In this document: piece by piece, positions 5,208 to 22,992 of the stretch
Numbering within the stretch: position 1 is the first letter of the stretch
Layout: each line of letters starts with the position of its first letter
DNA from: Thermoleophilia bacterium
GTDB taxonomy: Bacteria; Actinomycetota; Thermoleophilia; Gaiellales; JAICJC01
Length of the DNA: 64,000 nt
Reading direction: 5' to 3'
NCBI GenBank assembly: GCA_025928655.1
Contig: JAICJC010000002.1
Location: 7,531-71,530, forward strand
The notes under the pieces: model-generated
Told to the model about the DNA's origin: nothing
Databases searched by the model: none
What the model saw: only the letters and a program-made list of their open reading frames with translations
Program-made: the position numbers and the translations under genes

Positions 5208-6254
5208 GTGCGCGCAGGCCGGGTGATCACGGTGGTCGGCTGCCACGCCGGCGGCGAGATCGGCAACGTCGTGACGGGCGGCGTGCTGCCGCCGCCGGGC
5301 GCCACCGTGTTCGAGCAGATGCAGGCGCTGCGCCGCGACGGCGACGGCCTGCGCAAGCTGCTTCTGCGCGAGCCGCGCGGGAGCGTCGCCTGCCACGCGA
5401 ACCTGGTCGTCCCCGCGACCCGCCCCGACTGCGACGCGGGCTTCATCATCATGGAGCCCACCGAGTACCCGCCGATGTCGGGCTCGAACACGATCTGCAC
5501 CGCCACGGTGCTCCTGGAGACGGGAATCGTGGCGATGACCGAGCCCGAGACGACGTTGCGGCTCGAGGCTCCGGGCGGCGTCGTCGAGGTGCGTGCGCGC
5601 TGCCGCGACGGCCGCTGCGAGAGCGTCGAGGTGACGAACGTGCCGGCGTTCGCCGACCGCCTGGACGCCCCGCTCGAGGTCGAGGGCATGGGCACTCTGA
5701 CGGTCGACGTCTGCTACGGCGGCATGTGGTACGCAATCGCGGACGCCGCCGCGCTCGGGTTCGCGATCGAGCCGGGCGAGGCCCGCGACCTCTCGCTGAC
5801 GGGGGAGCGCATCCGCGCCGCCGCCCGCGAGCAGCTGCCCTGCGCCCACCCGGAGAACCCGAACATCGCCGGCGTCAGCATCGTCCAGATCGCCGGGCCG
5901 TGGCAGGGCGTCGGCGCGGTGAGCCGAAACGCGGTCGTCATCGCGCCGGGCCGGCTCGACCGCTCGGCGACGGGCACCGGGCTGTCGGCCCGGATGGCGG
6001 CGCTCCACGCCCGCGGGCTGATGCGCCCGGGCGACGGGATGACACACGCCTCGCCGATCGGCACCACCTTCGACGGCCGCATCGTGTCGGAGACCCGGGT
6101 CAACGACCGGCAGGCGATCGTGCCCGCGATCCGTGGGAGCGCCTGGATCACCGGCGTCTCGCAGGTTCTCGTCGACCCGGCCGACCCGTTCCCGGAGGGC
6201 TACCTGCTCTCCGACACGTGGGGCGTGAGCGGACTGGATGTCCAGCCGGGCTAG
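5208..6254 (+). CDS. Proline racemase family protein, Ser/Thr active-site type (trans-3-hydroxyproline dehydratase-like)
   Basis: HAGGE, LLREPRG, MSGSNT, DRSATGTG; leaderless -10 TACACT at 5195. Confidence 0.85.
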   Translation: MRAGRVITVVGCHAGGEIGNVVTGGVLPPPGATVFEQMQALRRDGDGLRKLLLREPRGSVACHANLVVPATRPDCDAGFIIMEPTEYPPMSGSNTICTATVLLETGIVAMTEPETTLRLEAPGGVVEVRARCRDGRCESVEVTNVPAFADRLDAPLEVEGMGTLTVDVCYGGMWYAIADAAALGFAIEPGEARDLSLTGERIRAAAREQLPCAHPENPNIAGVSIVQIAGPWQGVGAVSRNAVVIAPGRLDRSATGTGLSARMAALHARGLMRPGDGMTHASPIGTTFDGRIVSETRVNDRQAIVPAIRGSAWITGVSQVLVDPADPFPEGYLLSDTWGVSGLDVQPG

Positions 6255-6288
6255 GCGCCCGCGATGGTAGATTCGCCCGGCTGCGGCG

Positions 6289-7215
6289 ATGACGAACCCC
6301 TTCCAGACAGACGGCACCTGGCTGCGCTGCGCGCTCCACGCCCACACCACCCGCTCCGACGGCGAGCTCCAGCCCGAGGCGCTCGTCGACCACTACGAGC
6401 GGGCCGGATGGGACGCGCTCGCCGTCACCGACCACTGGACGATCACGCACCCCCCGGCGCGCGACGGGATGGTGCTCGTGCCCGGGATCGAGCTCACCTG
6501 CCGTACGACGGCGGGCGTGTGGGTCGACGTGCTGGTCTACGGCCTCGACCGCGAGCTCGACGTCGAGCCCGAGAGCTACGACTCGTACCCCGACCTCCCC
6601 GACGCGATGGAGTTCGTCGCCGCGCACGGGGGCGTCGCCTACATCGCCCACCCGTACTGGACGGGCGTGCCCATGGACGTCGTCGTCGGCCTGCCGGCGG
6701 TGGTCGGCATCGAGGTCTACAACGCCGGGTGCCAGATCGAATGCGGCCGCGGCCTGTCCAGCGTCCACTGGGACGGGCTCCTCGACGCCGGCCACTCCTG
6801 CTTCGCCGTGGCCTGCGACGACACCCACTACGCCGGCTTCGACTCCGGCTACGCCTGGACGATGGCCCACGTCGCGGAGCCGACGGCGGACGGAGTGGTC
6901 GCCGCCCTGCGCAGCGGCGCCTGCTACGCCTCGACGGGGCCGCGATTCGACACGATCGAGCCGGCGCCCGGCGGCCTGCTCGTGCGCTGCAGCCCCTGCC
7001 GCTCGGTCACGCTGTGCACGGGCCCCGAGGACGGCGGCCGGGCGATGGTCGGGCGGCTGGCGTTCCGCCACCGGGCCCGGATCGTCGACCGCGACCCGTC
7101 CACCGGGCTGATCACCGCCGTCGCGTTCGCGCCGCCGCCCGGCGCCGCCGCCGCCCGCATCGAGCTCGCGGACGCGGACGGCGGCACCGCCTGGTCAAAC
7201 CCGGTCGCGCTCTAG
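6289..7215 (+). CDS. PHP-domain (CehA/McbA-like) metallohydrolase
   Basis: LHAHTTRSDG, AVTDH, PGIE, AHPYW, IEVYN, DDTH. Confidence 0.85.
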   Translation: MTNPFQTDGTWLRCALHAHTTRSDGELQPEALVDHYERAGWDALAVTDHWTITHPPARDGMVLVPGIELTCRTTAGVWVDVLVYGLDRELDVEPESYDSYPDLPDAMEFVAAHGGVAYIAHPYWTGVPMDVVVGLPAVVGIEVYNAGCQIECGRGLSSVHWDGLLDAGHSCFAVACDDTHYAGFDSGYAWTMAHVAEPTADGVVAALRSGACYASTGPRFDTIEPAPGGLLVRCSPCRSVTLCTGPEDGGRAMVGRLAFRHRARIVDRDPSTGLITAVAFAPPPGAAAARIELADADGGTAWSNPVAL

Positions 7216-7292
7216 CCGCCGCCTCCCTCGAGACCACCTCGCACGGCCGCCGCAACCGGTTCCGGTTTCCGTGCGCGCGCTCACACAATGTC

Positions 7293-7320
7293 TTGACAAT
7301 TTCGCAACATCTGGGATGAT
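7293..7320 (+). promoter_or_regulatory. Putative housekeeping-sigma promoter of the NRPS operon
   Basis: TTGACA-N16-GATGAT in an AT-richer intergenic stretch upstream of the PPTase. Confidence 0.45.
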
Positions 7321-7365
7321 CCGGCAGCGGGTACATAGGACAGCACCCCCAAGGCAGCCAGGCAG

Positions 7366-8064
7366 GTGAGTGGGCGGGTGAATGTCAGCTTCAACAGCGA
7401 GGCGATCGTCCCATGCGCGCAGCACGTCGGGACGGTCGAGATACTGATCCCGGCGTCGGCGTCGGCCGACCTGTTCGACGACGTCCCGGAGTCGACGATG
7501 TACCCGGCCGAGGCGGCCGCGATCGCGCGCGCGGCCGCCGGGCGCCGGCGCGAGTTCGCCACGGTGCGCTACTGCGCCCGCCGGGCCCTGCGCCGGCTCG
7601 GGATCGCCCCGGCCGCGATCCTGCCCGACCCTGACGGCGTCCCCCGATGGCCGGCCGGGGCGGTCGGGAGCATGACCCATTGCGCCGGATACCGGGCGGC
7701 GGTCGTGGCCCGGGCGGAGAAGCTGCGCGGGATCGGCATCGACGCCGAGCCGCACGCGGCGCTGCCGGGGCCCGCGGCCCACCTCGTCCTGCGCGACGAG
7801 GAACGGCCGCGCCTGCGCGCGCTGGCGGGGGCCGACCCCGGCCTGCACTGGGACCGCGTCGTCTTCTGCGCCAAGGAGGCGGTCTACAAGGCTTGCTTCC
7901 CCGTGTCCCGGCGGTGGCTGGAGTTCTCCGACATCTCGGTGACGCTGCACGCCGGGGGCACGTTCGACGCACGCGTGCTCGCCGGAGGCGACGGCCTCGC
8001 CGGGCGCTGGACGGTCGACCGCGGGCTCGTCGTTGCCGCGACCTGGGTATGCCATGACGATTGA
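7366..8064 (+). CDS. 4'-phosphopantetheinyl transferase (EntD/Sfp-like)
   Basis: RRREF..R.CARRAL, P.WP.G.VGSMTH, GIDAE, FCAKEAVYKA; start uncertain. Confidence 0.92.
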   Translation: MSGRVNVSFNSEAIVPCAQHVGTVEILIPASASADLFDDVPESTMYPAEAAAIARAAAGRRREFATVRYCARRALRRLGIAPAAILPDPDGVPRWPAGAVGSMTHCAGYRAAVVARAEKLRGIGIDAEPHAALPGPAAHLVLRDEERPRLRALAGADPGLHWDRVVFCAKEAVYKACFPVSRRWLEFSDISVTLHAGGTFDARVLAGGDGLAGRWTVDRGLVVAATWVCHDD

Positions 8065-11000
8065 CGTGGGCACGACGTCCCCGCCCGACCCCGGCAGGGC
8101 CGGCCCGACGACCGCGTACGAGCGCATCCTCGCCGACACGCTGGCGGAGACAACGGGCCTCGAGTCGATCCCCGTCGAGGCAAACCTCTTCGACGACCTC
8201 GGCCTGGATTCCCTGGCGATCGCCCATTTCTGCGCCCGGGTCCGGAAGTCGGGGACGCTGCCGTCGATCTCGGTCAGGGACTGCTACCAGCACCCGACCG
8301 TCAGAGGACTGGCGGCGTCGCTTCCCGTGGGCGTCCCCGTCGGCGCCGGCCGGGCGCCGGCCGATGTCGTGTCGGCGCCGAAGCGCAGGGCCGCACCGGC
8401 GAGCAGCCGCGCCCACATCCTGTGCGGCACGATCCAGTTCCTCGTCTTCCTCGCGTATGCATCCGGCGCGGGGGTGGTGTTCACCGCCGGCTACAAGTGG
8501 ATCTCGGCCGGCTCGGGCGTGGTCGACCCGTACCTGCGATCGGTCGCCTTCGGCGCCGCCACCTTCGCCGGCCTCTGTCTCCTGCCGATCCTCGCGAAGT
8601 GGGCCCTGATCGGGCGCTGGGAGCGGGAGGAGATCCCGATCTGGAGCCTGCGGTACGTCCGCTTCTGGGCGGTGCACACGCTGATCCGGCTGAGCCCCGT
8701 TGTCCTTCTGACCGGGTCGCCGCTGTACCCGCTCTACCTGCGGGCGCTGGGCGCGAAGGTCGGGGCGGGTGTCGTCATCCTCTCGCGCTACCCGCCCGTG
8801 TGCACAGACCTGCTCACGATCGGCGCGCGGACGGTGATCCGCAGGGATTCCTTCTTCACCTGCTACCGGGCGGAGGGCGGGGTGATCCGAACCGGGCCGG
8901 TCACCATCGGGGAGGACGCGTTCGTCGGCCAGAACACGGTGCTCGACATCGACACCTCGCTGGGCGACCGGGCGCAGCTCGCCCACTCCTCCGCGCTCTA
9001 CGAGGGGCAGACGGTTCCCGCCGGCGAGCGGCGGCTGGGGTCGCCGGCGGAGCAGCGATCCGAGAGCGACTTCCAGAACGTCGAGCCGGCGCCGGTCGGG
9101 GCCCGCAGACGCGCAACGTACGCGGCCATGGAGATCCTGGGCGTGCTGGCGCTGTACCTGCCGGCCGCCCTCGGCGGCACCTACCTGCTCGCCACCAGGG
9201 TGCCGCCGTTCGACGCGCTCGTGCGCTCGTCGCCGGCGGACGTCGCCACCTGGGCGTTCCAGCGCGACGCGATGATCGCCGCGCTCATCCTCCTCGTCGG
9301 CGGCATCGGCCTCGGGCTGGCGTTCATCGGCACCGTCCCCCGGCTCCTCAACCTCGTGCTGGAGCCCGACCGCGTCTACCCGCTGTACGGGTTCCACTAC
9401 ACCGTCCACCGGGCGATCGGCCGGCTCACCAACGTGCCCTTCTTCCTGCAGCTGTTCGGCGACAGCTCCTACATCGTCCATTACCTGCGCTGGGTCGGGT
9501 ACGACCTCACCGAGATCGAGCAGACGGGGTCGAACTTCGGCACCGCCGTCGGGCACGAGAACCCGTACCTGGCGTCGATCGGCACCGGGACGATGGTCGC
9601 CGACGGGCTCTGGATCGTGAACGCCGACTACTCGAACACCTCCTTCCGGTTGTCGCGGGTCGCGATCGGCCGCAACAACTTCATCGGCAACAACATCCCC
9701 TATCCCTCGCAGGCGCGCACGGGCGACAACACGCTGCTCGCCACCAAGGTGATGGTCCCGGTCGACGGCGACATCCGCGAGAACGTCGGACTGCTCGGCT
9801 CGCCGAGCTTCGAGATCCCGCGCTCGGTCGAGCGCGACCGCCGCTTCGACGACCTGCGCTCGGGGGTCGAGCGCGGCCGCCGGCTCGCGGCCAAGAACCG
9901 GCACAACATCGTGACGATGGGCCTGTTCCTGCTGACGCGGTGGATCTACGCGCTCGCGATGACCGAGCTCGCCTTCGGCGCCGTCGTCCTCTACGGGGAC
10001 CTGGCCGTGGTGGCAACCGCGGGCGCAGTCGTCCTGGTGCTGCCGTTCACGGTCGCCTACCTGGCCGTGGTGGAGCGGGCCGGGGCCAGGTTCCGGACGC
10101 TGCGCCCGCTCTACTGCTCGATCTACCAGCCGGAATTCTGGCGGCACGAGCGCTACTGGAAGATGGCCGCCGTCCGGCTGCCGCGCAGCCTCGACGGCAC
10201 CCCGTTCAAGGCCCTCGCCTGGCGCGCCCTCGGAGTACGGATGGGCCGGCGCGTCTTCGACGACGGCTCCGCGATCGTCGACCGCAGCCTGGTCACGATC
10301 GGTGACGACTGCGTCCTGAACGCGGGCAGCGTCGTCCAGCCGCACTCGCAGGAGGACAGCGCCTTCAAGTCGGACCGGATCACGATCGGCTCGCGCGTCA
10401 CCGTCGGGGTGAGCGCCCACGTGCACTACGGCGTCACGATCGGCGACGGCGCCCGCCTCGGCCCCCACTCGTTCCTGATGAAGGGCGAGGAGATGCCGCC
10501 GGACGCGCGCTGGGCCATGAACCCGGCCGTGGAGCCCCGCGCGCCGGTCTCCGCCGGCCGGCCTGCGCAGGCCGACCCCAGCGCCGAGCCGACCGACGGG
10601 TTCGGCCGGATCCCGAGGTGGACGGCGGAGCCGGCGGCCGGGGTCGGCGAGCATCGGGAGACGATGCCGGCAGGCCTCGCGGCGGCCGTCCGCAGCCTGG
10701 CCGACGATCTGGAGGTGCCCCCGAGCACCGTCGTGCACGCGACCCACGCCCGGGTGCTCGGCGCGCTCACCGGCGAGAGCGACGTCACGACCGGCTACCT
10801 CGCCCTGGGCGGCGACATCCCGGTGCCGTGCCCGCTCGCGGCCGAGGCCGGCTCATGGCGGGCCCTGGTGCTGGCGACCCGGCAGGCGGAGGTGGACGAG
10901 GAACGCAGCGCCGAGGGTGCGTTCGAGTCCGTCTTCGACCCGGCCGGCCTCGACGCGGGCCCGGTGGACGGCGCGGTCGTGCGGGTCGGCGTGCAGGAGC

Positions 11001-12730
11001 GCGGGGGCGAGCTCGCGCTGCGCCTGGCCTACCGCAGAGACGTCCTCGATGCGGAGTCCGCCGCGCGGGTGGCCGGCTACCACCTGGCCGCCCTGCACCG
11101 GCTCGCGGCCGACCCGGACGGGGAGCCGGCGGGTCACAGCCTGCTCTCCGAGGAGGAGGTTCGCCTCCAGCTCGACGGGCTCGCAGGGCCGCAGCGAGAG
11201 CTCCCGGACCGGCGCTTCCACGAGCTCTTCGAGGAGCGGGCGGCGGCGCACCCCGACGCCGTCGCGGCCGTCTGCCGCGACCGGCGCTTCACGTACGCCG
11301 AGCTGAACGCGTGCGCCAACCGGCTGGGACGGGCGCTCCTGGCGCGCGGCCTGCCGCCCGAGGGCGTGGTGGCCGTCGTGACCGAGCGCGACCTCGAGTG
11401 GATGGCCTGCGTGCTCGCGATCCTCAAGGCGGGCGGCTGCTATCTCCCGGTCGAGCCGCACCTGCCGCCCGACCGCATCGCGGGGATGCTCTCGCGCGCC
11501 GGCTGCGAGCTCGTGCTGACCGAGCCGGGCAGCTCGGCGACGCTCGAGGCGGCGCTCGAATCGCTGCCGGGCGTCGAGCCGGTCGACGTCCACCGGGCCC
11601 TCGAGGAGGGCCACGCCGACGGCGACCTCGGGGTTTCGGTGACGCCCGGGCAGCTCGCCTACATCTACTTCACCTCCGGCTCCACCGGCGAGCCCAAGGG
11701 GGCGATGTGCGAGCACGGCGGCATGCTCAACCACCTCTACGCGAAGATCGACGACCTCGGCCTGGGCGAGGGCGACGTGGTGGCCCAGGTCGCGCCCCAG
11801 AGCTTCGACATCTCGCTGTGGCAGCTCGTCTCCGCCCTCCTGGTCGGCGGCCGGACGCTGATCGTCGAGCAGGAGCTGATCCTCGACATCGAGGAGTTCG
11901 TCGAGCGGGTCGCGGAGCGCCGGGTCAACGTGCTGCAGGTGGTGCCCTCCTACCTCGAGGCGTTGCTCTCCTACCTCGAGGAGTTCCCCCGCGAGCTGCC
12001 GGACCTGCGCTCTGTCTCGGTCACCGGGGAGGCGGTGAAGCGGGAGCTCCTGCGGCGCTGGTTCGCGTACGCGCCCGGGATCAAGGTGATGAACGCCTAC
12101 GGGCTGACCGAGACGTCGGACGACACCAACCACGAGGTCATGGCCGGCGTGCCGGGCTCCGCGCGCGTGCCGCTCGGGCCTCCTGTGCGGAACGTCCGCG
12201 TCTACGTCGTCGACGAGCGCCTCTCGCCGGTGCCGCTCGGCGCCCCGGGGGAGATCGTGTTCTCGGGCGTGTGCGTCGGCCGCGGGTACATCAACGATCC
12301 CGAGCGCACCCGGCTCGCGTTCGTGCCCGACCCCCACCGTCCGGGCGAGCGCCTCTACCGCAGCGGCGACTACGGCCGCTGGCGGCCCGACGGCAAGCTC
12401 GAGTTCCTCGGCCGCCGCGACCATCAGGTGAAGATCAGAGGGCTGCGGATCGAGATCGGCGAGGTCGAGAGCGCCCTGCTGGGGGTGGACGGCGTCCGTG
12501 CCGCCGCGGTGGTCGTCGCCGAGGGAGCCGCGGGCGCGAAGCGGCTGGTGGGGTTCTACGTCGGCCCGGAGCACGAGGCCGACGCGCTGCGAACGGCGAT
12601 GGGAGAGTCGCTGCCCGCCTACATGATCCCGGCGGCGTTCCACCGGCTCGACGGGCTGCCCCTGACCGCCAACGGCAAGGTCGACCGCAAGGCGCTGGCC
12701 CGCCTCACCGAGGGGGTGGAGGCCCGATGA
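8054..12730 (+). CDS. Membrane-bound Pls/PosA-like NRPS with order T - TM/LbH x3 - truncated C - A
   Basis: T: NLFDDLGLDSL (Ser 8210); three hexapeptide/LbH blocks separated by hydrophobic helices; A motifs YIYFTSGSTGEPKG, FDIS, NAYGLTE, LYRSGD, GRRDHQVKIRG, LPLTANGKVDR; no C-terminal T or TE. Confidence 0.9.
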   Translation: MTIDVGTTSPPDPGRAGPTTAYERILADTLAETTGLESIPVEANLFDDLGLDSLAIAHFCARVRKSGTLPSISVRDCYQHPTVRGLAASLPVGVPVGAGRAPADVVSAPKRRAAPASSRAHILCGTIQFLVFLAYASGAGVVFTAGYKWISAGSGVVDPYLRSVAFGAATFAGLCLLPILAKWALIGRWEREEIPIWSLRYVRFWAVHTLIRLSPVVLLTGSPLYPLYLRALGAKVGAGVVILSRYPPVCTDLLTIGARTVIRRDSFFTCYRAEGGVIRTGPVTIGEDAFVGQNTVLDIDTSLGDRAQLAHSSALYEGQTVPAGERRLGSPAEQRSESDFQNVEPAPVGARRRATYAAMEILGVLALYLPAALGGTYLLATRVPPFDALVRSSPADVATWAFQRDAMIAALILLVGGIGLGLAFIGTVPRLLNLVLEPDRVYPLYGFHYTVHRAIGRLTNVPFFLQLFGDSSYIVHYLRWVGYDLTEIEQTGSNFGTAVGHENPYLASIGTGTMVADGLWIVNADYSNTSFRLSRVAIGRNNFIGNNIPYPSQARTGDNTLLATKVMVPVDGDIRENVGLLGSPSFEIPRSVERDRRFDDLRSGVERGRRLAAKNRHNIVTMGLFLLTRWIYALAMTELAFGAVVLYGDLAVVATAGAVVLVLPFTVAYLAVVERAGARFRTLRPLYCSIYQPEFWRHERYWKMAAVRLPRSLDGTPFKALAWRALGVRMGRRVFDDGSAIVDRSLVTIGDDCVLNAGSVVQPHSQEDSAFKSDRITIGSRVTVGVSAHVHYGVTIGDGARLGPHSFLMKGEEMPPDARWAMNPAVEPRAPVSAGRPAQADPSAEPTDGFGRIPRWTAEPAAGVGEHRETMPAGLAAAVRSLADDLEVPPSTVVHATHARVLGALTGESDVTTGYLALGGDIPVPCPLAAEAGSWRALVLATRQAEVDEERSAEGAFESVFDPAGLDAGPVDGAVVRVGVQERGGELALRLAYRRDVLDAESAARVAGYHLAALHRLAADPDGEPAGHSLLSEEEVRLQLDGLAGPQRELPDRRFHELFEERAAAHPDAVAAVCRDRRFTYAELNACANRLGRALLARGLPPEGVVAVVTERDLEWMACVLAILKAGGCYLPVEPHLPPDRIAGMLSRAGCELVLTEPGSSATLEAALESLPGVEPVDVHRALEEGHADGDLGVSVTPGQLAYIYFTSGSTGEPKGAMCEHGGMLNHLYAKIDDLGLGEGDVVAQVAPQSFDISLWQLVSALLVGGRTLIVEQELILDIEEFVERVAERRVNVLQVVPSYLEALLSYLEEFPRELPDLRSVSVTGEAVKRELLRRWFAYAPGIKVMNAYGLTETSDDTNHEVMAGVPGSARVPLGPPVRNVRVYVVDERLSPVPLGAPGEIVFSGVCVGRGYINDPERTRLAFVPDPHRPGERLYRSGDYGRWRPDGKLEFLGRRDHQVKIRGLRIEIGEVESALLGVDGVRAAAVVVAEGAAGAKRLVGFYVGPEHEADALRTAMGESLPAYMIPAAFHRLDGLPLTANGKVDRKALARLTEGVEAR

Positions 12731-13752
12731 GCGCCGTTCCGGAGTTCGTCGTGATCCCCGGCGTCCAGGTCGAGCGCGTCCTGCAGGGGCGGGAGCGGGA
12801 GACGGTGGCGCTGGTCGAGGCGGCCTACCGCCTCCACGGCGCGGGCGACACGGTCAACCCGCCCTCCTACTTCCTGCGCTTCCCCGACCGCCCCTCGGCG
12901 CGCATCATCGCCCTGCCTGCGTCGCTCGGCGGGGAGGAGCGGGTCGACGGCCTCAAGTGGATCTCGAGCTTCCCCGAGAACCTGAGCGCCGGGATCCCGC
13001 GGGCCTCGGCGGTGCTGATCCTGAACGATCCCGGCACCGGCTTCCCCTACGCATGCCTGGAGGCCTCGGTGATCAGCGCGAGCAGGACGGCGGCGATGGC
13101 GGCGATCGCCGCCGACGTGCTGTCCCGCGGCGGCGCGCGGCCGCAGCGGCTCGCGCTCTTCGGGAGCGGCCTGATCGCCCGCTACATCCACACCTTCCTG
13201 GCCGCGACCGGCTGGTCGTTCGAGCGGATCGGCATCCACGACCTGTCCCGCGACAGCGCGGAGGGCTTCCGCGGATACCTGGAGCGCGCGGGCGAGGCCG
13301 GCCCGATCACCGTGGACGACGGCCCCGAGCGGCTCATCCGTTCGAGCGACCTCGTGGTCTTCGCGACGACGGCGGCGACGCCGCACGTCACCGACCCCGA
13401 GTGGTTCGAGCACAACCCGCTGGTGCTGCACGTCTCGCTGCGCGACCTCTCGCCGGAGGTCGTGCTCGCCTCGGCCAACGTCCTCGACGACGTCGAGCAC
13501 TGCCTCAAGGCGCAGACGTCGCCGCACCTGGCCGAGCAGCTCACCGGCAACCGCGACTTCGTGACCGGCACGCTGAACGACGTGATCTCCGGACGGGTGG
13601 CCGTCCCGGCCGGCCGGCCGGTGGTGTTCTCGCCGTTCGGCCTCGGAGTCCTCGACCTGGCGGTCGGGAGGCACGTGTACGACCGCCTTTCCCATGACGG
13701 CGATCTGCACATCGTCGACGACTTCTTCCACGAGCTTCGCCGACACGGCTAG
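12727..13752 (+). CDS. sbnB: 2,3-diaminopropionate biosynthesis protein SbnB (ornithine cyclodeaminase fold)
   Basis: NPPSYFLRFP, RIIALPA, KWISSFPEN, RASAVLILND, FSPFGLGVLD; ATGA overlap with NRPS stop. Confidence 0.92.
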   Translation: MSAVPEFVVIPGVQVERVLQGRERETVALVEAAYRLHGAGDTVNPPSYFLRFPDRPSARIIALPASLGGEERVDGLKWISSFPENLSAGIPRASAVLILNDPGTGFPYACLEASVISASRTAAMAAIAADVLSRGGARPQRLALFGSGLIARYIHTFLAATGWSFERIGIHDLSRDSAEGFRGYLERAGEAGPITVDDGPERLIRSSDLVVFATTAATPHVTDPEWFEHNPLVLHVSLRDLSPEVVLASANVLDDVEHCLKAQTSPHLAEQLTGNRDFVTGTLNDVISGRVAVPAGRPVVFSPFGLGVLDLAVGRHVYDRLSHDGDLHIVDDFFHELRRHG

Positions 13753-13764
13753 GAGGGCACGCCA

Positions 13765-14814
13765 ATGCCGATCATCACGGATCCCCAGGAGTTCAACCAG
13801 GAGGAGCTCTACATCGACCTGCGCCCGATGTGCGGGCACTCGCTGTTCCTCAAGGTCGAGGGCTTCAACTTCGCCGGATCGATCAAGCTGAAGGCCGCCG
13901 CCGAGATGGTGAGGGCCGCCGAGCGGGACGGGAGCCTGACGCCGGACTCGATCCTCGTCGAGTCCTCGTCCGGAAACCTCGGCGTCGCCCTGAGCATGCT
14001 CGCGGCGAACAAGGGCTACCGGTTCGTGTGCGTGACCGACTCCCGCTGCAATCCCGCGGCCCTGCGGCTGATGGAGTCGTTCGACGCCGAGGTGCACGTG
14101 ATCACCGAGCCGGCGGCGAACGGCGGCGGCCGGCTCGGGGCGAGGCTCGACCACGTCCGCGGGCTGTGCGCCTCGGACGACCGCTACCTCTGGCTCAACC
14201 AGTACGGGAACCCGGCGAACCCGAGAGCGCACTACCGCACCACGGCGCCCGCGATCGCCCGCAGGTTCCCCGAACTCGACGTCCTCTTCATCGGCGCCGG
14301 CACGTGCGGAACGCTCATGGGCTGCGCCCGGTACATGCACGAGCTGCGCCGTCCGGTCAAGATCGTCGCGGTGGACACGGTCGGCTCGGTCACCTTCGGC
14401 GGCCCGTCGGGCCGGAGGCTGATCCCCGGCCTGGGCGCGGGCGTGCGGGTGCCGCAGCTCGACGAGTCGTACGTCGATGACCTCGTGATGGTGCCCGAGG
14501 CGAAGACGATCCGTACCTGCCGGCGGCTGGCCCGGCGCGGGTTCCTGTTCGGCGGGTCGACCGGCACGGTGGTGAGCGGCGCGCTCGACTGGCTCGCCCG
14601 CAACGACGCCGGCGACCTGACCGCCGTCGCCGTCTCCCCGGATCTCGGGGAGCACTACATGGAGACGGTCTACACGGACGAGTGGGTCCAGGAGCACTAC
14701 GGCGAGGGCGTGCTCGCGCGCGACGAGCCGGAGGCGGCGGCCGAGCGCGATCGTGTCGGCCGGCCCCGCCGTGCCCGGCGTGGGAGGCGGTTGGGGGCGA
14801 TCCCGGCCCGGTGA
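13765..14814 (+). CDS. sbnA: 2,3-diaminopropionate biosynthesis protein SbnA (PLP, cysteine synthase fold)
   Basis: LKVEGFNFAGSIK, ESSSGNLG, WLNQY.N..N, GTCGT, RLIPGLG, GGSTG; RBS AGGAGG. Confidence 0.92.
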   Translation: MPIITDPQEFNQEELYIDLRPMCGHSLFLKVEGFNFAGSIKLKAAAEMVRAAERDGSLTPDSILVESSSGNLGVALSMLAANKGYRFVCVTDSRCNPAALRLMESFDAEVHVITEPAANGGGRLGARLDHVRGLCASDDRYLWLNQYGNPANPRAHYRTTAPAIARRFPELDVLFIGAGTCGTLMGCARYMHELRRPVKIVAVDTVGSVTFGGPSGRRLIPGLGAGVRVPQLDESYVDDLVMVPEAKTIRTCRRLARRGFLFGGSTGTVVSGALDWLARNDAGDLTAVAVSPDLGEHYMETVYTDEWVQEHYGEGVLARDEPEAAAERDRVGRPRRARRGRRLGAIPAR

Positions 14815-14838
14815 GGCGGCCGGCCCGGGGCGCGCCGT

Positions 14839-15574: not shown

Positions 15575-16522
15575 TCAGGCCGGCGCCGTCTCGCGCTCGG
15601 AGACCGCGACCGCGACGGCGGCCACGATCACGGCGCTCGCGATCAGCGCGCCCGTGGTCAGCGACTCGCCCGCGACCGCCCACCCCAGCACCACCGCCAC
15701 GGCCGGGTTTACGAACGCGTACGTCGCCACCCGCGCCGGCGCGACCACGCGGAGCAGCCACACGTAGGCGGAGAAGGTGAGGACGGTCCCGAAGACGATG
15801 AGATAGGCCATCCCGCCGATCGAGCGGCCGGTGACGGCGGCGAGGCGGAGCGAGGACAGCTCGCCCGACGCGGCGGCGACGACGACCAGGATGGCCCCGC
15901 CCGCGAGCAGGGGCATCGCCGCACCCAGGACGGGCGAGCGGGGCACGGGCACGGCGCGCGTGGCCACCGTCCCGGCCGCCCAGGAGAGCGCACTTCCGAC
16001 CAGCAGGAGCGCGTCGGTCGCATGCAGCCCGCCGCCCGCCCCCTGGGAGGCGACCAGCAGCACCACGCCGGCGAACCCCACGCCGAACGCCGCCACCCGC
16101 CGCCGGGACGGCGGCCGCCCGCCCGGCAGCGCCCAGCCGAGCAGGGGGACGAACAGCGGGATCGTGGCCAGGCAGAGGGCGGCGATGCCGGACGGCACCC
16201 GCTCCTCGGCGTAGGCGAGCACGCCGTGACAGCCCACGAAGAGGAGCGTGCCGATGACCAGGGCGCCGCCCCACTCCGCCCGCGCCGGCCGGGGCAGCTC
16301 GCGCTCGCGGACGAGCCCCAGCGCGAGCAGGATCGCCCCGCCGAACAGGCACCGCCCGGCCATCATCGCGAAGGGCGGGATGGTCTCGACGGCGTAGCGG
16401 ATCGCGAGGAAGGTCGACCCCCACACGAAGTAGATCGCGGCGAAGGCGGCCATCACCTCCGCCGCGGGAGGGCCCCCCGGGGCCCGCGCCGGCGCCGGCG
16501 CCGGCCCGGTCGGCGAGCTCAC
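15575..16522 (-). CDS. EamA/DMT family transporter
   Basis: IYFVWGSTFLAI, PSGIAAL, TYAFVNPAVAV; GTGA overlap with upstream cyclase gene stop. Confidence 0.9.
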   Translation of the reverse strand: MSSPTGPAPAPARAPGGPPAAEVMAAFAAIYFVWGSTFLAIRYAVETIPPFAMMAGRCLFGGAILLALGLVRERELPRPARAEWGGALVIGTLLFVGCHGVLAYAEERVPSGIAALCLATIPLFVPLLGWALPGGRPPSRRRVAAFGVGFAGVVLLVASQGAGGGLHATDALLLVGSALSWAAGTVATRAVPVPRSPVLGAAMPLLAGGAILVVVAAASGELSSLRLAAVTGRSIGGMAYLIVFGTVLTFSAYVWLLRVVAPARVATYAFVNPAVAVVLGWAVAGESLTTGALIASAVIVAAVAVAVSERETAPA

Positions 16523-19500
16523 CCGGCGGCGCCGGGGTGCGCGTCCGCGCGGTCGACGATGACGCCGTCGAGCCGGAACGGCGTGAGCGCGTTCGCCCAC
16601 AGGCCGTGCACCCACGGCCGCCGCAGCAGCGTCGTGCGCTGGTAGGCAACGGGCACGAGCACGGCCCACTCGGCCACCAGCAGCCGGTCGATGCGCCCGT
16701 ACAGCTCGAGCCGCTCGTCCTGGTCGCGCGACGCCCGCGCGCGGCTCAGCAGGTCGAGCAGCCGGCTGTTCATCGCCTGCTCGGTGACCGGGTCGCACGG
16801 ATCCTCGAGCAGCCCGCGGAAGAAGCCGTCGGGATCGGGATAGTCGGCCAGCCACGCGCCCATCCACAGATCGGACTCGTCGTCCGCGCTGCGGATGGCC
16901 CGCTCGCTGATGACGGCCTCGACGCCGACCCCGATCTCGGCCAGCGCCGCCTCGAGAACGTCGATCAACACCGAGAAGCCCTTCGCGATCAGCATCCGCA
17001 GGCGCGGCAGGCCCTCGCCGCCCGGATAGCCCGCCTCGGCCAGCAGCGCACGGGCGCCGTCGAGGTCGAGCGCCTCGGAGACGTGGTGGTCGTGGCCGGG
17101 CATCGCCGGCGGCAGGAGCCCGCCGCCTTCGGCCGGCCGGCTCACGAGGCCGCTCTTCGGAAAGGCGCGGGCGACCGGGGCGAGCGCGGCCGCCACCGCC
17201 CGGCGGACGCGCACGTCGTCCAGGGGCGCGCGGTCGCTACGGAAGCCGATCATGGCCGTTCCCAGGGTCGGGGCCAGGTCGACGCAGTCCTCGTCCCCCT
17301 CCGGCTCGAAGGGCATCGAGAGCACGTCCACCTGCCCCGACGCCCACAGGTCCTTCACCGCCGTCGTCTTGGCGTGAATGCGGAAGTCGACCTCGATCTC
17401 GCGCAGGTTGCCGCGCCGCCCGGTCCAGCGGGGATTGGCGACCATCACGAGCCGGTCGTCGTCGATGCTCTCGAGCAGGAACGGCCCGTTCGAGACCAGC
17501 GGCTGGCGCCGGTGCCAGTCGTCGCCCTGCGACTCGCACAGGTGGCGCGGCCACGGGTAGGAGTAGGTGGACGCGAGCACGTAGGGGAAGTAGTTGCGCG
17601 GCGCGCGCAGGACCACCTCGAGCGTGTGGTCGTCGAGCGCCGTTGCCCCCTCGACGTCCTGGAGCAGGAACGCGGTCACCGTCGAGCGCTGCCGGGCGCG
17701 CTCCCACGTGTAGACGAAGTCGTGCGCCGTCACGGGCTCCCCATCGCTCCAGCAGGCGCTCTCGCGCAGCTGGAAGAGGTACGTCAGCCCGTCTCCCGAG
17801 ACGCGGAAGTTCTCGGCCAGCGAGGGCATCACGTTCAGGTCGCGGTCGATCACGAGCAGGCCGCGGAACAGGTGGGCGGTGAGGGCATTCGATTCCGAGA
17901 CGTAGTCGAGCCCGGGCGCGAGCGCGTCCGGCCGCGGGAGCGCCGTGGCGAGCCGCTCGGTCGGCTCGGGCTGGTCGAGCGGCACGACCTTGCAGGCGAA
18001 GGCCTCGTCGTAGGCGCGCTCCGCCTCGGCGAAGTTGAACGCCAGGTGGTGGACGAGGGCGATCTTGAAGAGCGTCTCGCGGGAGCGGCGGTCGTCGCCC
18101 ATCCGGGCCAGGAACTCGCGCGCCTGCCGGTAGTGGCGGATCGCCTCCTGGTTGGCGTAGATCGCGCGGGCGTCGTCGCCGGCCCGGATCAGGTACTCGG
18201 CCGCGCGGGCCGGATCGTCGGCGGCGCTGAAGTGGCGGGCGAGCAGCGCGAGCGTCGCGCCGCTCGTCTCGTCGCCGGCCAGCTCCTCCAGGGCGACGCC
18301 GACGCGCCGGTGCAGCTCCTGGCGGTCGGAGTCGGTCAGGCTGGCGTAGGCCGCCTCCTGCACGAGCCCGTGGCGGAAGCGGTACTCCGGGTACGGGCGG
18401 CGCCGCTCCTCGACGATCAGGTCGAGACGCTGCAGCTCGAGCAGGGCCGCCGGCAGGGCCTCGGGGCTCAGCACGCACTCGAGCAGGGGCATCCCGAACC
18501 GGCGGCCGATCACCGCGGCGACCGCGACCGTCTCGCGGCCGGCCGCGTCGAGGCGGTCGAGCCGGGCCTGGAGCACGCCCTGCACGAGCGCGGGCACCTC
18601 CAGCCGGCCGGGATCGACGGCCAGCTCCCACCCGCCGTTCTCGCGCCGCAGCGCGCCGCGTTCGACGAGGTCGCGCAGCGCCTCGCTCACGAACAGCGGG
18701 TTCCCGCCCGCGCGCTGGGAGATCAGCTCGGCCACCTGCTCGGGCAGCGGGGCGTCCGCGAGCGCCTGGGCCAGCTCGCGGGTCGCGTCGCCGGCGAGCG
18801 CACGAAGCTCAACCTCGACGTAACGGTGAGGGTAGTGCTGGCGCGCGCGCTCGCCCACGCCCCAGGAGGGGAGCTCGCGCTCACTGCGGTAGAGCAGCGC
18901 GATGCCGAGCGCCTCGGTCTCGGTCAGCTCGATCAGGCTCTCCACCGCCTGCAGCGTCAGCTCGTCGGCCCAGTGCAGATCCTCGAACACGACCAGCAGT
19001 GGTCGCTCCGCGGCCAGGCGGGTGAGCAGGTCGGCCACCACCTCGAGGCTGCGCCGGTGCAGCGCGTCGTGGGACAGCTCCCGCAGGTCGGCGGCCGCGC
19101 GCCGGTCGGCCTCCTGCAGGCCGAGCAGGTTGGCGAGGAACGGGTAGCGGTCGTCGCCGGGCCCGTAGAGCTCGTGCAGGGCGGCCTTGAGGTCGAAGCG
19201 GATGCGCGCCTCGCTGGTCGTCGCGGAGGCGCCCAGCCAGTCGCGCAGCAGGTCGCGGATGGGCCAGTACGAGAACCCCTGCGTGTACGACAGGCCGCGG
19301 CCGACGAGCACCTTCAGCCGGTCGCGCAGCGGGTCGACGGCCTCGGCCGCGAGACGCGACTTCCCGATCCCCGGCTCGCCGGTGACCGAGACGATCACCC
19401 CGATCCCGTCGCCGAGCCGCTCGAACGCCCCCCGCACCTCGGCCAGCTCGCTCCCCCGCCCCACCAGCGGGCCGTCGGCCGGCCGGGCGCCGCGGTCGAG

Positions 19501-20106
19501 CTCGCCCACGACCCGGTAGCGGTCGACGGGGCGCGAGCGGCCGCGCAGCTCGGTCGGGCCCATGTCCTCAAGCTCGAAGCAGTCGCGCACCTGGACGGCT
19601 GTATCGGGGCCGAGCATGACGTCGGCGTCGCCGGCCAGCGCCTGCAGGCGGGCGGTCACGTTCACGGTGTCGCCCAGGGCGTTGAAGTGCTCGGCGCCGT
19701 CGGAGTCGGGCGTGATCAGCACCGGGCCGGTGTTCACGGCGACCCGGGCCCGCAGGGCGATGCCGTAGGCCTCGTCGACGTCGCGCGAGTACGCGCCCAG
19801 CGCGCGCTGCAGAGCCAGGCCTGCGCGCACCGCCCGCTCGCTGTCGTCCTCGTGCGCCACGGGCGCGCCGAAGACCGCGAGCAGGCCGTCGCCGAGCAGC
19901 TGCGCGACCGTCCCGTCGTAGCGCTCGACCTGCTCGGCCATCAGCCGGACGACCTCGTCGAACAGGAACTTCGACCGCTCGGGACCGAGCTGCTCGCCGA
20001 TGGCCGTCGAGCCGGCCACGTCCGCCATCAGCACCGCCACGACGCGGCGCTCTCCCTCCGTCACCACCATGCCTGCAGTCTGGCACACCGTCGCTTCGCG
20101 GCCCAC
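16519..20106 (-). CDS. Class III nucleotide cyclase - STAND (AAA) ATPase - TPR - family 5 solute-binding domain fusion
   Basis: ADVAGST/GDG/GDTVNVTARLQ; Walker A GEPGIGKS, Walker B VFEDLHWAD, GGNPLF, FRHGLVQEAAY; C-terminal WSDGEPVTAHDFVY, VSNGPF, WLADYPDP; start GTG 20106 (RBS) or ATG 20070. Confidence 0.88.
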   Translation of the reverse strand: MGREATVCQTAGMVVTEGERRVVAVLMADVAGSTAIGEQLGPERSKFLFDEVVRLMAEQVERYDGTVAQLLGDGLLAVFGAPVAHEDDSERAVRAGLALQRALGAYSRDVDEAYGIALRARVAVNTGPVLITPDSDGAEHFNALGDTVNVTARLQALAGDADVMLGPDTAVQVRDCFELEDMGPTELRGRSRPVDRYRVVGELDRGARPADGPLVGRGSELAEVRGAFERLGDGIGVIVSVTGEPGIGKSRLAAEAVDPLRDRLKVLVGRGLSYTQGFSYWPIRDLLRDWLGASATTSEARIRFDLKAALHELYGPGDDRYPFLANLLGLQEADRRAAADLRELSHDALHRRSLEVVADLLTRLAAERPLLVVFEDLHWADELTLQAVESLIELTETEALGIALLYRSERELPSWGVGERARQHYPHRYVEVELRALAGDATRELAQALADAPLPEQVAELISQRAGGNPLFVSEALRDLVERGALRRENGGWELAVDPGRLEVPALVQGVLQARLDRLDAAGRETVAVAAVIGRRFGMPLLECVLSPEALPAALLELQRLDLIVEERRRPYPEYRFRHGLVQEAAYASLTDSDRQELHRRVGVALEELAGDETSGATLALLARHFSAADDPARAAEYLIRAGDDARAIYANQEAIRHYRQAREFLARMGDDRRSRETLFKIALVHHLAFNFAEAERAYDEAFACKVVPLDQPEPTERLATALPRPDALAPGLDYVSESNALTAHLFRGLLVIDRDLNVMPSLAENFRVSGDGLTYLFQLRESACWSDGEPVTAHDFVYTWERARQRSTVTAFLLQDVEGATALDDHTLEVVLRAPRNYFPYVLASTYSYPWPRHLCESQGDDWHRRQPLVSNGPFLLESIDDDRLVMVANPRWTGRRGNLREIEVDFRIHAKTTAVKDLWASGQVDVLSMPFEPEGDEDCVDLAPTLGTAMIGFRSDRAPLDDVRVRRAVAAALAPVARAFPKSGLVSRPAEGGGLLPPAMPGHDHHVSEALDLDGARALLAEAGYPGGEGLPRLRMLIAKGFSVLIDVLEAALAEIGVGVEAVISERAIRSADDESDLWMGAWLADYPDPDGFFRGLLEDPCDPVTEQAMNSRLLDLLSRARASRDQDERLELYGRIDRLLVAEWAVLVPVAYQRTTLLRRPWVHGLWANALTPFRLDGVIVDRADAHPGAAG

Positions 20107-20125
20107 TTTCTCTCCCTCTCCTCGA

Positions 20126-20139
20126 CGAACGTATGTTCG
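20126..20139. promoter_or_regulatory. LexA (SOS) box
   Basis: CGAAC-GTAT-GTTCG matches the Gram-positive GAAC-N4-GTTC consensus; overlaps a putative TTGCGA-N17-GAACAT promoter on the minus strand. Confidence 0.7.
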
Positions 20140-20169
20140 CACGCCGGGCGTGGAGTCGCAACCGGGAAT

Positions 20170-20212: not shown

Positions 20213-22519
20213 CTACAGAGACCGCAGCGCCGGGCCCAGGGCCTGGCGGTCCTCGAGCACCGGGGCCTGGAGATCGCCCATACGGGACACGCGGTTCAGC
20301 ACGACGGACAACGTGAAGGCATCCGGGTCGACACCGGCGCGCAGCTCGTCCCAGGTGACCGGCGTCGACACCGGCGCGCCGGGCTTCGGGCGCACCGAGT
20401 AGGCGAACGCGATCGTGCGGCCGGGGCCGTTCTGGTTCGCGTCGATCAGGACGCCCCTGCGCTTCGCCTTCGACCACTCCGTCGTGACCAGGTCGGGCCG
20501 GATCGAGGCGAGCGCGCGCGAGATCGCGAGCACGACGCCGCGGGTCTGGTCGTAGCCGTAGCGGCGGGCGAGCGGCACGAGCACGTGCACCCCGTCGGAG
20601 CCGCTCGTCTTCGGATACCCGCGCAGGTCGACGGCGGCCAGGGCGTCGCGCACGAGCAGCGCCACCTCGGCCGCGGCGGCGAACCCGGCCTCCGGCGTCG
20701 GGTCGAGATCGAACAGGGCGAAGTCGGGGCGGTCGGGGCGGTCGATCCGCGAGCACCACGCGTTCAGGTCGATGCAGCCCATGTTCGCCATCCACAGGAG
20801 CGCCGCCTCCTCGTTCACGAGCGGGTAGCGGATCATGCGCTTCTCGCGCGTGTCCCGCGACGTGGCCGGGAACTCCGCGGTCGGGATCCAGTCGGGCATG
20901 TGCGACGGCGCGTTCTTCTGGAAGAACGGCTTGGCGGCGATCCCGTCCGGGTAGCGCTTCATCGTGAACGGCCGGCTCTCGAGGTGCGGCACGGCCACCT
21001 CGGCCACCGCCCGGTAGTACTCGATCAGGTCGCCCTTCGTGATCCCCTCCCCGGGCCAGAACACCTTGTCGAGGTTGGAGAGCTCGAGCGGCCGCACGCG
21101 CGCCGCCGTCCGCTCCCGGCGGGCCTCCTCCCGGTGCACCTCGGCCGCCGGCTTGTCGTCGCGCAGGCCCTTGTAGGAGGGCGCCCGCAGGCGGCCGTCC
21201 CGCGTCCACTCCAGGAACTCGACCTCGCACACGAGCTCCGGCTCGACCCAGGTGACGTCGCCCGCGCGCACGCGGGCCATCTTCGGCGCGACCCCGAGCG
21301 GCGTCGTCTCGCGCCGCAGCGGCGCGAGCCGGTCCATCAGCATGTCCAGCTCGGCGTCGTCGAACCCGGTGCCGCAGTTTCCGGCCCAGACGAGCTCGCC
21401 GTCACGCTCCACCGCCAGGACGAGCGAGCCGAAGGCGTTGTCGCGCCGCCCCTGACCGCGCGTGTAGCCGGCGATCACGAGCTCCTGCCGCTGCTGCGTC
21501 TTCACCTTCACCCAGGCATCGCTCCGACGCCCGGCAAGGTAGCGGCTGGCGGGCCGCTTCGCGAGGACGCCCTCGAGCTCGTGCGCGCGCGCCTGCTCGA
21601 GCAGCGCCGGCCCGTCATCGAACGCGACCGAGAGCCGCACCACCTCGCCCGGGATCAGCGTCTCCTCCAGCAGCTCCTTGCGCTCGGTCAGCGGGAGCGT
21701 GGTCACGTCGCGGCCGTCGAGCATGAGGATGTCGAAGGCGTACATCGTGAGCGCCCCGCCGCCGTGCTGGAGCAGCGAGAAGCGCGGCCGCCCCGCCTCG
21801 TCGAGCGCGCACACCTCGCCGTCGATCACGCAGTCGGCGCTGCGCAGCGACCCCGGCAGCGCCCGCGCCACCTGGGCGAAGCGGGCGGTCAGGTCGTTGC
21901 CGTTTCTGCTGCGCAGCGTCGCCTCGCCGCCCTCGACGGCGGCGATCACGCGGTAGCCGTCCCACTTGACCTCGTACACCCAGTCGCCGTGGACGGGGAG
22001 CTCGGCCGCCGGGACGGCCAGCATCGGCCGCAGCTCGGCCGGGTCGCCGGCCAGGTCGCCCTCGTCCTTGCGCATCATGAGCCAGTTGCGCGCGTCGCCG
22101 TCCAGCCGGGCCGGCACGAGCGTCCAGAGGCCGTTCAGGCGCCCGCCCCGCAGCCGCACCGTGAGCCCGCCGTCGCGCTTCTCCTCCACCAGCTCGTAGT
22201 GGCCGCGGTCCCAGATCTCGACCGTCCCGCCGCCGTACTCGCCCTTGGGGATCTCGCCCTCGAAGTTCGCGTAGTCGAGCGGGTGGTCCTCGACGTGGAC
22301 GGCCAGGTGGCGCTGGCCCTTGCGCAGCGGGATCCCCTTGGGCACCGCCCAGCTCGCGAGGGCGCCGTCGCGCTCGATCCGGAAGTCGAAGTGCAGCCGG
22401 CGGGCGTCGTGGCGCTGGACGACGAAGATCGGCTCGTCACCCCCGCCCGCGCCCGTGAACGGCTCCGGGGTCCTCCCCGGGTCGCGCTTGCGCCGGTAGG
22501 CGTCGAGTCGCTCGGGCAC
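20213..22519 (-). CDS. ligD: NHEJ DNA ligase D (phosphoesterase-ligase-polymerase)
   Basis: YRRKRD..TPEP, FVVQRH.ARRLHFDFR, SWAVPKG; YEVKWDGYR, EGVLAK; SNLDKVFWP, RYPDG, FDLDP, KTSG. Confidence 0.95.
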   Translation of the reverse strand: MPERLDAYRRKRDPGRTPEPFTGAGGGDEPIFVVQRHDARRLHFDFRIERDGALASWAVPKGIPLRKGQRHLAVHVEDHPLDYANFEGEIPKGEYGGGTVEIWDRGHYELVEEKRDGGLTVRLRGGRLNGLWTLVPARLDGDARNWLMMRKDEGDLAGDPAELRPMLAVPAAELPVHGDWVYEVKWDGYRVIAAVEGGEATLRSRNGNDLTARFAQVARALPGSLRSADCVIDGEVCALDEAGRPRFSLLQHGGGALTMYAFDILMLDGRDVTTLPLTERKELLEETLIPGEVVRLSVAFDDGPALLEQARAHELEGVLAKRPASRYLAGRRSDAWVKVKTQQRQELVIAGYTRGQGRRDNAFGSLVLAVERDGELVWAGNCGTGFDDAELDMLMDRLAPLRRETTPLGVAPKMARVRAGDVTWVEPELVCEVEFLEWTRDGRLRAPSYKGLRDDKPAAEVHREEARRERTAARVRPLELSNLDKVFWPGEGITKGDLIEYYRAVAEVAVPHLESRPFTMKRYPDGIAAKPFFQKNAPSHMPDWIPTAEFPATSRDTREKRMIRYPLVNEEAALLWMANMGCIDLNAWCSRIDRPDRPDFALFDLDPTPEAGFAAAAEVALLVRDALAAVDLRGYPKTSGSDGVHVLVPLARRYGYDQTRGVVLAISRALASIRPDLVTTEWSKAKRRGVLIDANQNGPGRTIAFAYSVRPKPGAPVSTPVTWDELRAGVDPDAFTLSVVLNRVSRMGDLQAPVLEDRQALGPALRSL

Positions 22520-22521
22520 GC

Positions 22522-22992
22522 CTACGAGGTGGCCCCGGGGACGAGCCGCTCCCAGTAGGAGGCCAGATCGCGCAGCTCGTCCGCGTCGAACCGCTCCAGG
22601 AACCGCCGTCGCACACCGGCCAGATGGGTGGCGCGGGCCGCGTCGAAGGCCGCCCGCCCACGCGGGGTGAGCACCGCGTACTGGCCGCGGGCGTCGTCCT
22701 CGCACGGCACCCGCTCGACCAGCCCGTCGCGCTCCAGCCGGTCGACGAGCCGGGTGACGCCGCTGCGCGAGAGCAGGACGGAGTCGGCGATCTCGGACAT
22801 CCGCATCCGCACCGCCGGCGCGTCCGCGACGGTCAGGAGCACCTCGTAGGAGCTGAGCGGGAGCCCGTGGGCGGCGATCAGCTCGGCGTCCAGCTCGCGC
22901 TCGAGGGCCGCATGCACGCGCAGGAACCCCCGCCACGAGGCCAGCTCCCTCCGGGTCAGCAGCACGGTGTCGGCGGCCGAGCTCTCCTGCAT
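22522..22992 (-). CDS. MarR family regulator
   Basis: YEVL, RMSEIA, LSRSGVTRLVDRL, D.RG. Confidence 0.92.
   Translation of the reverse strand: MQESSAADTVLLTRRELASWRGFLRVHAALERELDAELIAAHGLPLSSYEVLLTVADAPAVRMRMSEIADSVLLSRSGVTRLVDRLERDGLVERVPCEDDARGQYAVLTPRGRAAFDAARATHLAGVRRRFLERFDADELRDLASYWERLVPGATS

Follow-up and report, generated by a model that had tools for sequence, protein, structure and literature searches.

A carrier-first, adenylation-last Pls-type synthetase encoded with L-2,3-diaminopropionate genes in a Gaiellales bacterium

Synthetases of the Pls type begin with an adenylation (A) domain, followed by a carrier (T) domain and a membrane-bound terminal domain. A different order is found in a stretch of 64,000 nucleotides from a Thermoleophilia bacterium (assembly GCA_025928655.1, contig JAICJC010000002.1, positions 7,531 to 71,530; hereafter the window), which carries four genes encoding a 4'-phosphopantetheinyl transferase (PPTase), a nonribosomal peptide synthetase (NRPS) of 1558 residues in which the carrier comes first and the A domain last, and members of the SbnB and SbnA families. 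SbnA and SbnB make L-2,3-diaminopropionate (L-Dap). The locus thus raises the question of whether such a protein is one enzyme, how it acquired its order, and what it makes. We show that the synthetase is a single chain and, judging from sequence, the four genes quite probably form a pathway to a cationic L-Dap oligomer or polymer. The architecture is real and conserved, apparently undescribed, and of the Pls-type kind while failing the domain order and pocket type of that kind. Neither the T-first, A-last order nor its mirror form nor the gene cassette discussed below was found described in the full-text literature searched, which leaves most subscription papers outside; an earlier note, made from the sequence of the window alone, had proposed a permuted single-chain synthetase that makes a cationic Dap polymer or oligomer.

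A single chain with the carrier first

The operon is compact. The NRPS start overlaps the end of the PPTase gene by 11 nt, sbnB starts in an ATGA overlap with the NRPS stop, and sbnB and sbnA are 12 nt apart, which is the tightly coupled arrangement that the earlier note had read. Profile scans agreed with its description of the synthetase as a T-first protein with a membrane region, three β-helix blocks, a truncated condensation (C) domain, and a complete A domain with nothing after it. The TIGR02353 terminal domain (TM) scored 713 bits against a cut-off of 423 and covered model positions 1–695. The A domain is made up of AMP-binding (residues 1059–1412) and AMP-binding_C (1470–1542) matches, and just 8 residues lie beyond it. 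Between the two stands a half C domain, here called C*, to which the family profile aligns from residue ~220–230 of solved C–A proteins, and whose Atlas features lie at 0.97–0.98 to Condensation clusters. The protein holds no working C domain, only this C-lobe remnant, and a thioesterase (TE) was absent both from the protein and, by tblastn, from the assembly.

Hydropathy, averaged over 59 aligned sequences, indicated six transmembrane helices (residues 126–144, 163–181, 361–379, 407–425, 622–640, and 655–673; peaks 1.8–2.6), which form three pairs between three alignable left-handed β-helix repeats; the number is even, as expected if T and A are to lie on the same side. An additional, weaker hydrophobic peak was seen at residues 216–234. 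Because Lys and Arg are concentrated in the long segments of the membrane domain, both of its ends should be cytoplasmic. A search of the terminal domain against a copy of the PDB gave nothing beyond weak β-helix matches.

The fusion into one chain is real. The junction is bridged by one contig of an independent soil run (X6 record 28, 9791–10864) with 12 substitutions and 0 gaps, and all 18 aligned full-length homologs are continuous across it; there is no stop or frameshift at ~10.5 kb, and these data rule out two separate genes or an assembly artifact. The border between the A domain and sbnB is crossed without an insert by contigs from two runs. In runs X2 and X18, a contig that lacks 1 base at 10442 occurs beside contigs without the loss; its source may be a different strain or organism.

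Two homolog searches yielded 214 proteins, 21 of which are ordered T1-TM-C*-A (T1 being the N-terminal carrier), including the window protein and two that are cut short. The carrier Ser, the P-loop Lys, A7 Asp, A8 Arg, A10 Lys, and the ten residues of the A-domain specificity code are invariant in 18/18 fused proteins, which span 53–90% identity; the near-identical P0002 was left out of the 18 aligned, and the count is also without P0037 and P0044 (two carriers, cut A domain) and the end-truncated P0137 and P0014. The ratios of nonsynonymous to synonymous substitution (dN/dS) against L046 were 0.30 for A, 0.34 for TM, 0.41 for C*, and 0.53 for T, which are rough values, dS being underestimated at such GC content.

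A permuted pair and a split parent

A mirror order, C*-A-T1-TM, was found in 17 proteins that form a clade of their own (support 100): P0070, P0072, P0094, P0117, P0124–P0130, P0132–P0135, P0139, and P0140 (as an example of the locus, L087:2054–6853). Their records carry Planctomycetota and Verrucomicrobiales labels and have sbnB and sbnA, and no TauD-family oxygenase gene was present in either of the two mirror-order loci inspected (L087 and L117, which are identical in A). By domain order and phylogeny, the two arrangements appear to be natural circular permutants that form separate clades and have undergone the same losses.

The carrier was the same type in both. A T1-type carrier is kept in 17/17 mirror-order proteins and in 12/12 fused proteins scored, and the window carrier scored 102 bits with the T1-type profile versus 17 with that for T2, the second carrier of related loci. 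T1 is the only PF00550 match in the window's assembly (G000, 82% complete), and its A domain is the only NRPS-like A domain there; a second genome, G035 (95% complete), has one PF00550 carrier besides an 85-residue open reading frame (ORF) of acyl carrier protein size. The retention of T1 in the mirror clade suggests that the A domain pairs directly with T1 and, since T1 is also the sole carrier in the assembly, loading of the N-terminal T1 by the C-terminal A domain, within one chain or between neighbors, is very likely, as the earlier note had proposed.

Most of the mapped loci (the best 80 of 573 genome matches and the best 80 of 466 metagenome matches) have a split cassette instead, consisting of T1-TM with one to four copies of T1, C*-A-T2 with or without TE, a TauD-family oxygenase, sbnB, and sbnA. 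Its hosts include Streptomyces, Arthrobacter, Pseudonocardia, Thermoleophilaceae, and Acidobacteria. This five-gene cassette is the direct parent of the window form, with 54–60% identity in TM, 65–75% in A, and an identical code. The two share T1-TM, C*-A with that code, sbnB, and sbnA; the window form is fused and without T2, TE, and the SyrP-like TauD, whereas the split cassette has T2, often TE, and a linked TauD. In 108 split loci the distance from the stop codon to C* is mostly 60–120 nt, and in 18 full-length fused proteins the anchor motifs on either side of the linker are 11–46 residues apart.

The nearest split locus, L091 from Thermoleophilaceae, has the gene order of the window with the PPTase first, and fused forms group with it in the TM tree (support 96) and the A tree (87). 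By this comparison, the window form is an L091-type locus in which an in-frame fusion joined the T1-TM gene to its neighbor (C*-A-T2-TE), so that two NRPS genes are read through, with the contiguous block T2-TE-TauD lost. The fused forms may share a single origin: in one tree 14/16 of their rows group at 95, but in two others the position of L091 among them is not resolved. P0153, an N-terminally cut and hence incomplete TM-C*-A protein outside the main fused clade, may represent a second origin. Read-through of the junction recurs, as eight proteins fuse the entire cassette into T1-TM-C*-A-T2-TE-TauD. These whole-cassette fusions are 2270–2350 residues long (P0131, P0138, P0143, P0145–P0147, P0149, and P0162; also P0144).

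The second carrier and the oxygenase were counted in the 139 loci that extend 600 nt or more downstream, without the 21 that fall short of this: 130 have both T2 and TauD, six have neither, three have T2 alone, and none has TauD alone, although kin among these loci are not independent and the six represent two lineages. Searches of genomes with single-carrier forms detected no TauD (0/5 and 0/3, one probably being the same assembly; the search control was positive in 3/3), nor did the query used detect one in G000, and TauD is absent from the operon. The TauD proteins of the cassette are SyrP-like, with nearest annotated matches at ~39%, and neither TauD nor the A domain could be linked to a named pathway by searching plasmids. 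The set of A-T, TE, TauD, SbnA, and SbnB resembles the dapdiamide core genes. Some T1-TM genes (L168, L172, L002, and P0031), with two to three carriers, still have a damaged N-terminal A domain, and L003 holds an intact A-T-TM relative at 51% identity with a mode-1 code; the first step was therefore probably the loss of the A domain that the polymerase had of its own.

Parts of the cassette also occur elsewhere. C*-A-T2, TauD, sbnB, and sbnA without a TM gene were seen in L056, L060, L062, L064, L067–L081, and L083–L086, frequently with multimodular NRPS genes as neighbors (Streptomyces, Kutzneria, Saccharothrix), possibly as a supply unit for modified Dap. L068 has a second, clavaminate-synthase-like oxygenase. 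In an Arthrobacter cassette a LuxE-like acyl-protein synthetase gene (L042:13625–14779) lies directly 3' of sbnB, and the product of that cassette is possibly acylated.

A bolder reading, which we put forward tentatively, is that both orders are independently evolved, working permutants in which a Pls-type polymerase is fed at either end by a foreign A domain of the assembly-line type, and that the permutants are counterparts, with one carrier and without the oxygenase, of a widespread machine that has two carriers and would make an oxidized, alternating, or branched Dap polymer. If true, the polymerase would need only a loaded T1 and would be indifferent to where the A domain sits or which one does the loading.

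Monomer, product, and relation to known polymer synthetases

The code of the window A domain, DIWQSTADDK, is identical in 175/182 family A domains. Over the pocket region the closest solved structures are SulA3 (9n1u, 104 bits) and then PvdL (77 bits). Residue-by-residue alignment to 9n1u places Asp at both position 8 and position 9 of the code, as in SulA3 of the sulfazecin synthetase SulM (PDB 9N1U/9N1V), where this pair binds the β-amine of L-Dap according to the accessible part of the SulA3 report (PMC12042044). The same part of that report notes SulA3 homologs in which position 2 is Ile and position 4 is Gln, as in the window code; it found the pocket mode in none of the other known clusters and draws no connection between this mode and a Pls-type domain. 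The settings differ, in that SulA3 belongs to a multimodular assembly line with a β-lactam-forming TE, whereas the window A domain is part of a four-gene membrane-synthetase operon. The Asp pair is also present in PvdL, whose domain we take to activate 2,4-diaminobutyrate (Dab).

Both supply enzymes exceed their curated cut-offs, in line with the reading of the earlier note that Dap supply genes are present. The closest solved structures are SbnB and CmnK for SbnB, and SbnA and CmnB for SbnA, which has equivalents of Arg132 and Arg224. In 68/71 loci with enough room, this A domain has sbnA and sbnB at its side, and neither dat nor ectB scored over the cut-off in five genomes. Because of this gene context and the lack of a dat or ectB match over the cut-off, Dap is favored over Dab as the monomer.

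Based on these assignments, SbnA and SbnB would supply L-Dap, the PPTase would prime Ser53 of the N-terminal carrier, and the C-terminal A domain would adenylate L-Dap and load T1; with both ends of the six-helix domain predicted to be cytoplasmic, loading could take place within or between chains. By homology, the three β-helix repeats would then use the side-chain amine to link the Dap units, and chains of mixed length would be released through the membrane domain, as in Pls, PDAPs, and PosA. We infer polymerization by analogy with these enzymes.

Pls, PDAPs, two Dab polymer synthetases, and PosA all have the order A-T-terminal domain and a mode-1 pocket, as far as the accessible text of the respective reports goes (PMC10522769, PMC8117764, PMC8225329, PMC8506220). 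The window synthetase has in common with Pls, PosA, PddA, and their kin the TIGR02353 domain with six helices in three pairs and three β-helix repeats, the lack of a working C or TE domain, and a carrier with an active Ser directly before the terminal domain. It differs in order (T-TM-C*-A) and at code position 3, which is Glu in Pls, PosA, and their kin and Trp in the window. The comparison with PDAPs (EXU85975) and NjxA/NjxB of Streptomyces albulus PD-1 is similar. Both systems have a Pls-type terminal domain after a carrier and L-Dap as the likely monomer, whereas PDAPs is A-T-TM, is unlinked to njxAB, and has another pocket type, and the window has its A domain last, after half a C domain, with Dap genes and a PPTase in the operon. 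The window synthetase was not found to be an ortholog of EXU85975, sharing 28% (TM) and 34% (A) identity with the primer-identified ortholog L192, whose code was left unused, as it looked misaligned at position 3; A identity to the Pls ortholog is also 34%. Thus, the proposal in the earlier note of a permuted Pls-like homopolyamide synthetase stands for the single chain and the Pls-type domain, but the gene is not a rearranged Pls or PDAPs gene. Its A domain belongs to another lineage, as the SulA3-like pocket and the 34% identity to the Pls and PDAPs orthologs indicate, and came together with the half C domain from the downstream cassette gene.

The S. albulus enzymes NjxA and NjxB, which made L-Dap in vitro (PMC4668381, accessible part), most likely belong to the split cassette, because the published njxA/njxB primers match the cassette sbnA/sbnB of Streptomyces lunalinharesii (L040:13245–15350) with 1–3 mismatches, and because an NRPS with predicted glutamine specificity (EXU92123; PMC4668381, accessible part), which fits the C*-A-T gene of the cassette, stands two accession numbers away from NjxB (EXU92121). 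The L040 SbnA and SbnB proteins, by these primer matches orthologs of NjxA and NjxB, are 68% and 71% identical to those of the window. The accessible part of that paper makes no mention of a split cassette around njxA/njxB. One Streptomyces genome, G067 (L186–L194), has five TIGR02353 matches, namely the Pls and PDAPs orthologs and up to three T1-TM pieces, two of these at contig ends; an exact njxB primer match was not found among 101 relatives of G067.

Several observations weigh against an L-Dap oligomer or polymer. In the pocket, the amine-binding Asn of SulA3 is replaced by Thr, and the code agrees better with that of the PvdL domain (8/10) than with that of SulA3 (6/10). Identity of the TM domain is no higher than 28% to L192, the PDAPs ortholog, and 26% (partial) to the Pls ortholog, and there is no peptidase or exporter in the island that holds the operon. 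Moreover, disruption of pdaps ended PDAP production in S. albulus PD-1 (PMC4668381, accessible part). S. lunalinharesii holds a T1-TM gene, and if PD-1 has one too, the split polymerase made no PDAP detectable by HPLC in that strain; TauD and T2 may alter the product of the PD-1 cassette. The knockout hints that plain poly-Dap is not necessarily what this polymerase clade makes.

The code shared with the PvdL domain at 8/10 positions would suit a polymer other than linear β-poly-L-Dap, be it very short, branched (comb-type), mixed, or made of L-Dab or Ser through a relaxed pocket. Branched Dap polymer is known (cited in the accessible part of PMC10522769), and in most relatives the polymerase evolved alongside a second carrier and an oxygenase. 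We nevertheless regard such a product as unlikely, given that the sbnA and sbnB that accompany this A domain are translationally coupled in the window, that no Dab transaminase scored over the cut-off, and that with one carrier and no TauD a second monomer has no evident source. The low TM identity to every characterized polymerase ortholog tested, the loss of PDAP in the pdaps knockout, and the missing peptidase and exporter would rather suit a membrane domain that is loaded in the same way but acts as an aminoacyltransferase, placing one or a few Dap units on an envelope lipid or glycan in a Dlt-like manner; the repeats do resemble the β-helices of sugar acyltransferases (also in the accessible part of PMC10522769). 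This seems improbable to us, as characterized TIGR02353 proteins all make homopolymers in the parts of the literature examined, in which PDAPs and the Dab polymer synthetases likewise lack a linked peptidase, as the domain matches across the full model, and as canonical A-T-TM relatives exist at 48–51% identity. The Dap polymer or oligomer therefore remains the product that we favor.

A recently inserted island and what it offers

The four genes make up a 7.6-kb island (Table 1). In 16/17 congener loci padR lies directly beside a close ortholog of the PHP gene, leaving an empty site (the 17th locus is interrupted by a contig end), and in several of them the PHP and padR stops overlap at CTAG. 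These comparisons indicate a recent insertion of the island as one whole unit, and composition gave no indication of foreign origin (72.5% GC in the island, 72.6% in the assembly). The proline-racemase, PHP, PadR, and EamA neighbors were rejected as island members, as congeners have these genes without the island.

Table 1. Features of the island and its synthetase, in window coordinates
Feature	Position	Strand	Remarks
Accessory island	7216..14838	.	Between convergent stop codons of PHP-type hydrolase gene and padR (PadR)
Promoter-like site	7293..7320	+	TTGACA, 16 nt, GATGAT with TG; putative
PPTase, 4'-phosphopantetheinyl transferase (Npt/PptT-like)	7366..8064	+	PF17837 and PF01648; start codon uncertain
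Fused synthetase T1-TM/C1C2C3-C*-A	8054..12730	+	1558 aa, from ATG 8054
Carrier domain T1	8129..8317	+	PF00550; residues 26–88; Ser53 at 8210–8212
Pls/PosA-type membrane polymerase domain	8420..10528	+	TIGR02353 full length, residues 123–825
Fusion linker	10532..10603	+	Site of stop/start between two genes in split cassette
C*, C-terminal lobe of condensation domain	10604..11188	+	Without catalytic N-lobe; residues ~851–1045
Adenylation domain	11228..12703	+	Code DIWQSTADDK; core motifs all intact; residues 1059–1550
SbnB-family dehydrogenase/lyase	12727..13752	+	Predicted L-Dap release; TIGR03944, 409 bits, cut-off 327
SbnA-family pyridoxal phosphate (PLP) enzyme	13765..14814	+	TIGR03945, 370 bits, cut-off 350

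The gene was found in 0/30 congeners, a count that takes in the unpublished genome G016, which the other counts leave out. At family level, 4/64 other genomes gave matches (an ordinary A-T-TM protein, a copy with a frameshift, and two fusions that are intact), and any TIGR02353 match occurred in 7/401 genomes of the class; the source labels of close homologs are Gaiellales. The PPTase is the sole tblastn match of its kind in the window's assembly. This rarity, the derivation by deletion, and frameshifts in some copies (L026, L206) are what one would expect if the fused gene were a decaying, inactive remnant left after the loss of T2, TE, and TauD, with only Dap supply still mattering. We consider this very unlikely in view of the intact frames and catalytic residues kept across the fused proteins, dN/dS below 1 in every domain, the dedicated PPTase, the recent arrival of the island as a unit, and the independent clade with the same losses; in L206, the frameshifts affect all genes, including sbnA and sbnB, as sequencing error would.

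One promoter-like site was found 5' of the operon versus 0.2 expected, and TTGACA also lies 5' of the PPTase gene in 3/7 related loci inspected. RNA run X18 gave short, low-depth pieces over the operon, which, without a silent-stretch control, provide no evidence of expression. In G035, a SARP-type (BTAD) regulator (L025:15996–17540) is divergent from the same four-gene operon. Elsewhere in the window, a proline-racemase-family gene and the PHP/CehA-McbA-type hydrolase gene (5208–7215) are conserved in the genus, outside the island. Judged by eye, an ORF of ~1200 residues at 16519–20142 (− strand) resembles adenylate cyclase, ATPase, and solute-binding domain, and the translation of a long ORF at 20213–22936 (+ strand) is like a LigD-type DNA ligase with phosphoesterase, ligase, and polymerase parts.

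Few cationic amino-acid homopolymers are known, several of them with antimicrobial use. From a natural T-first, A-last enzyme and its sister clade of mirror order it would follow that an A domain of unrelated origin can supply the polymerase at either of its ends. This matters for monomer swapping and for the question of how the carrier gets to a membrane domain of unsolved structure. With four genes, one carrier, and no oxygenase, the window operon is also the easiest way into an orphan cassette that is very common (573 matching stretches in one collection and 466 in another).

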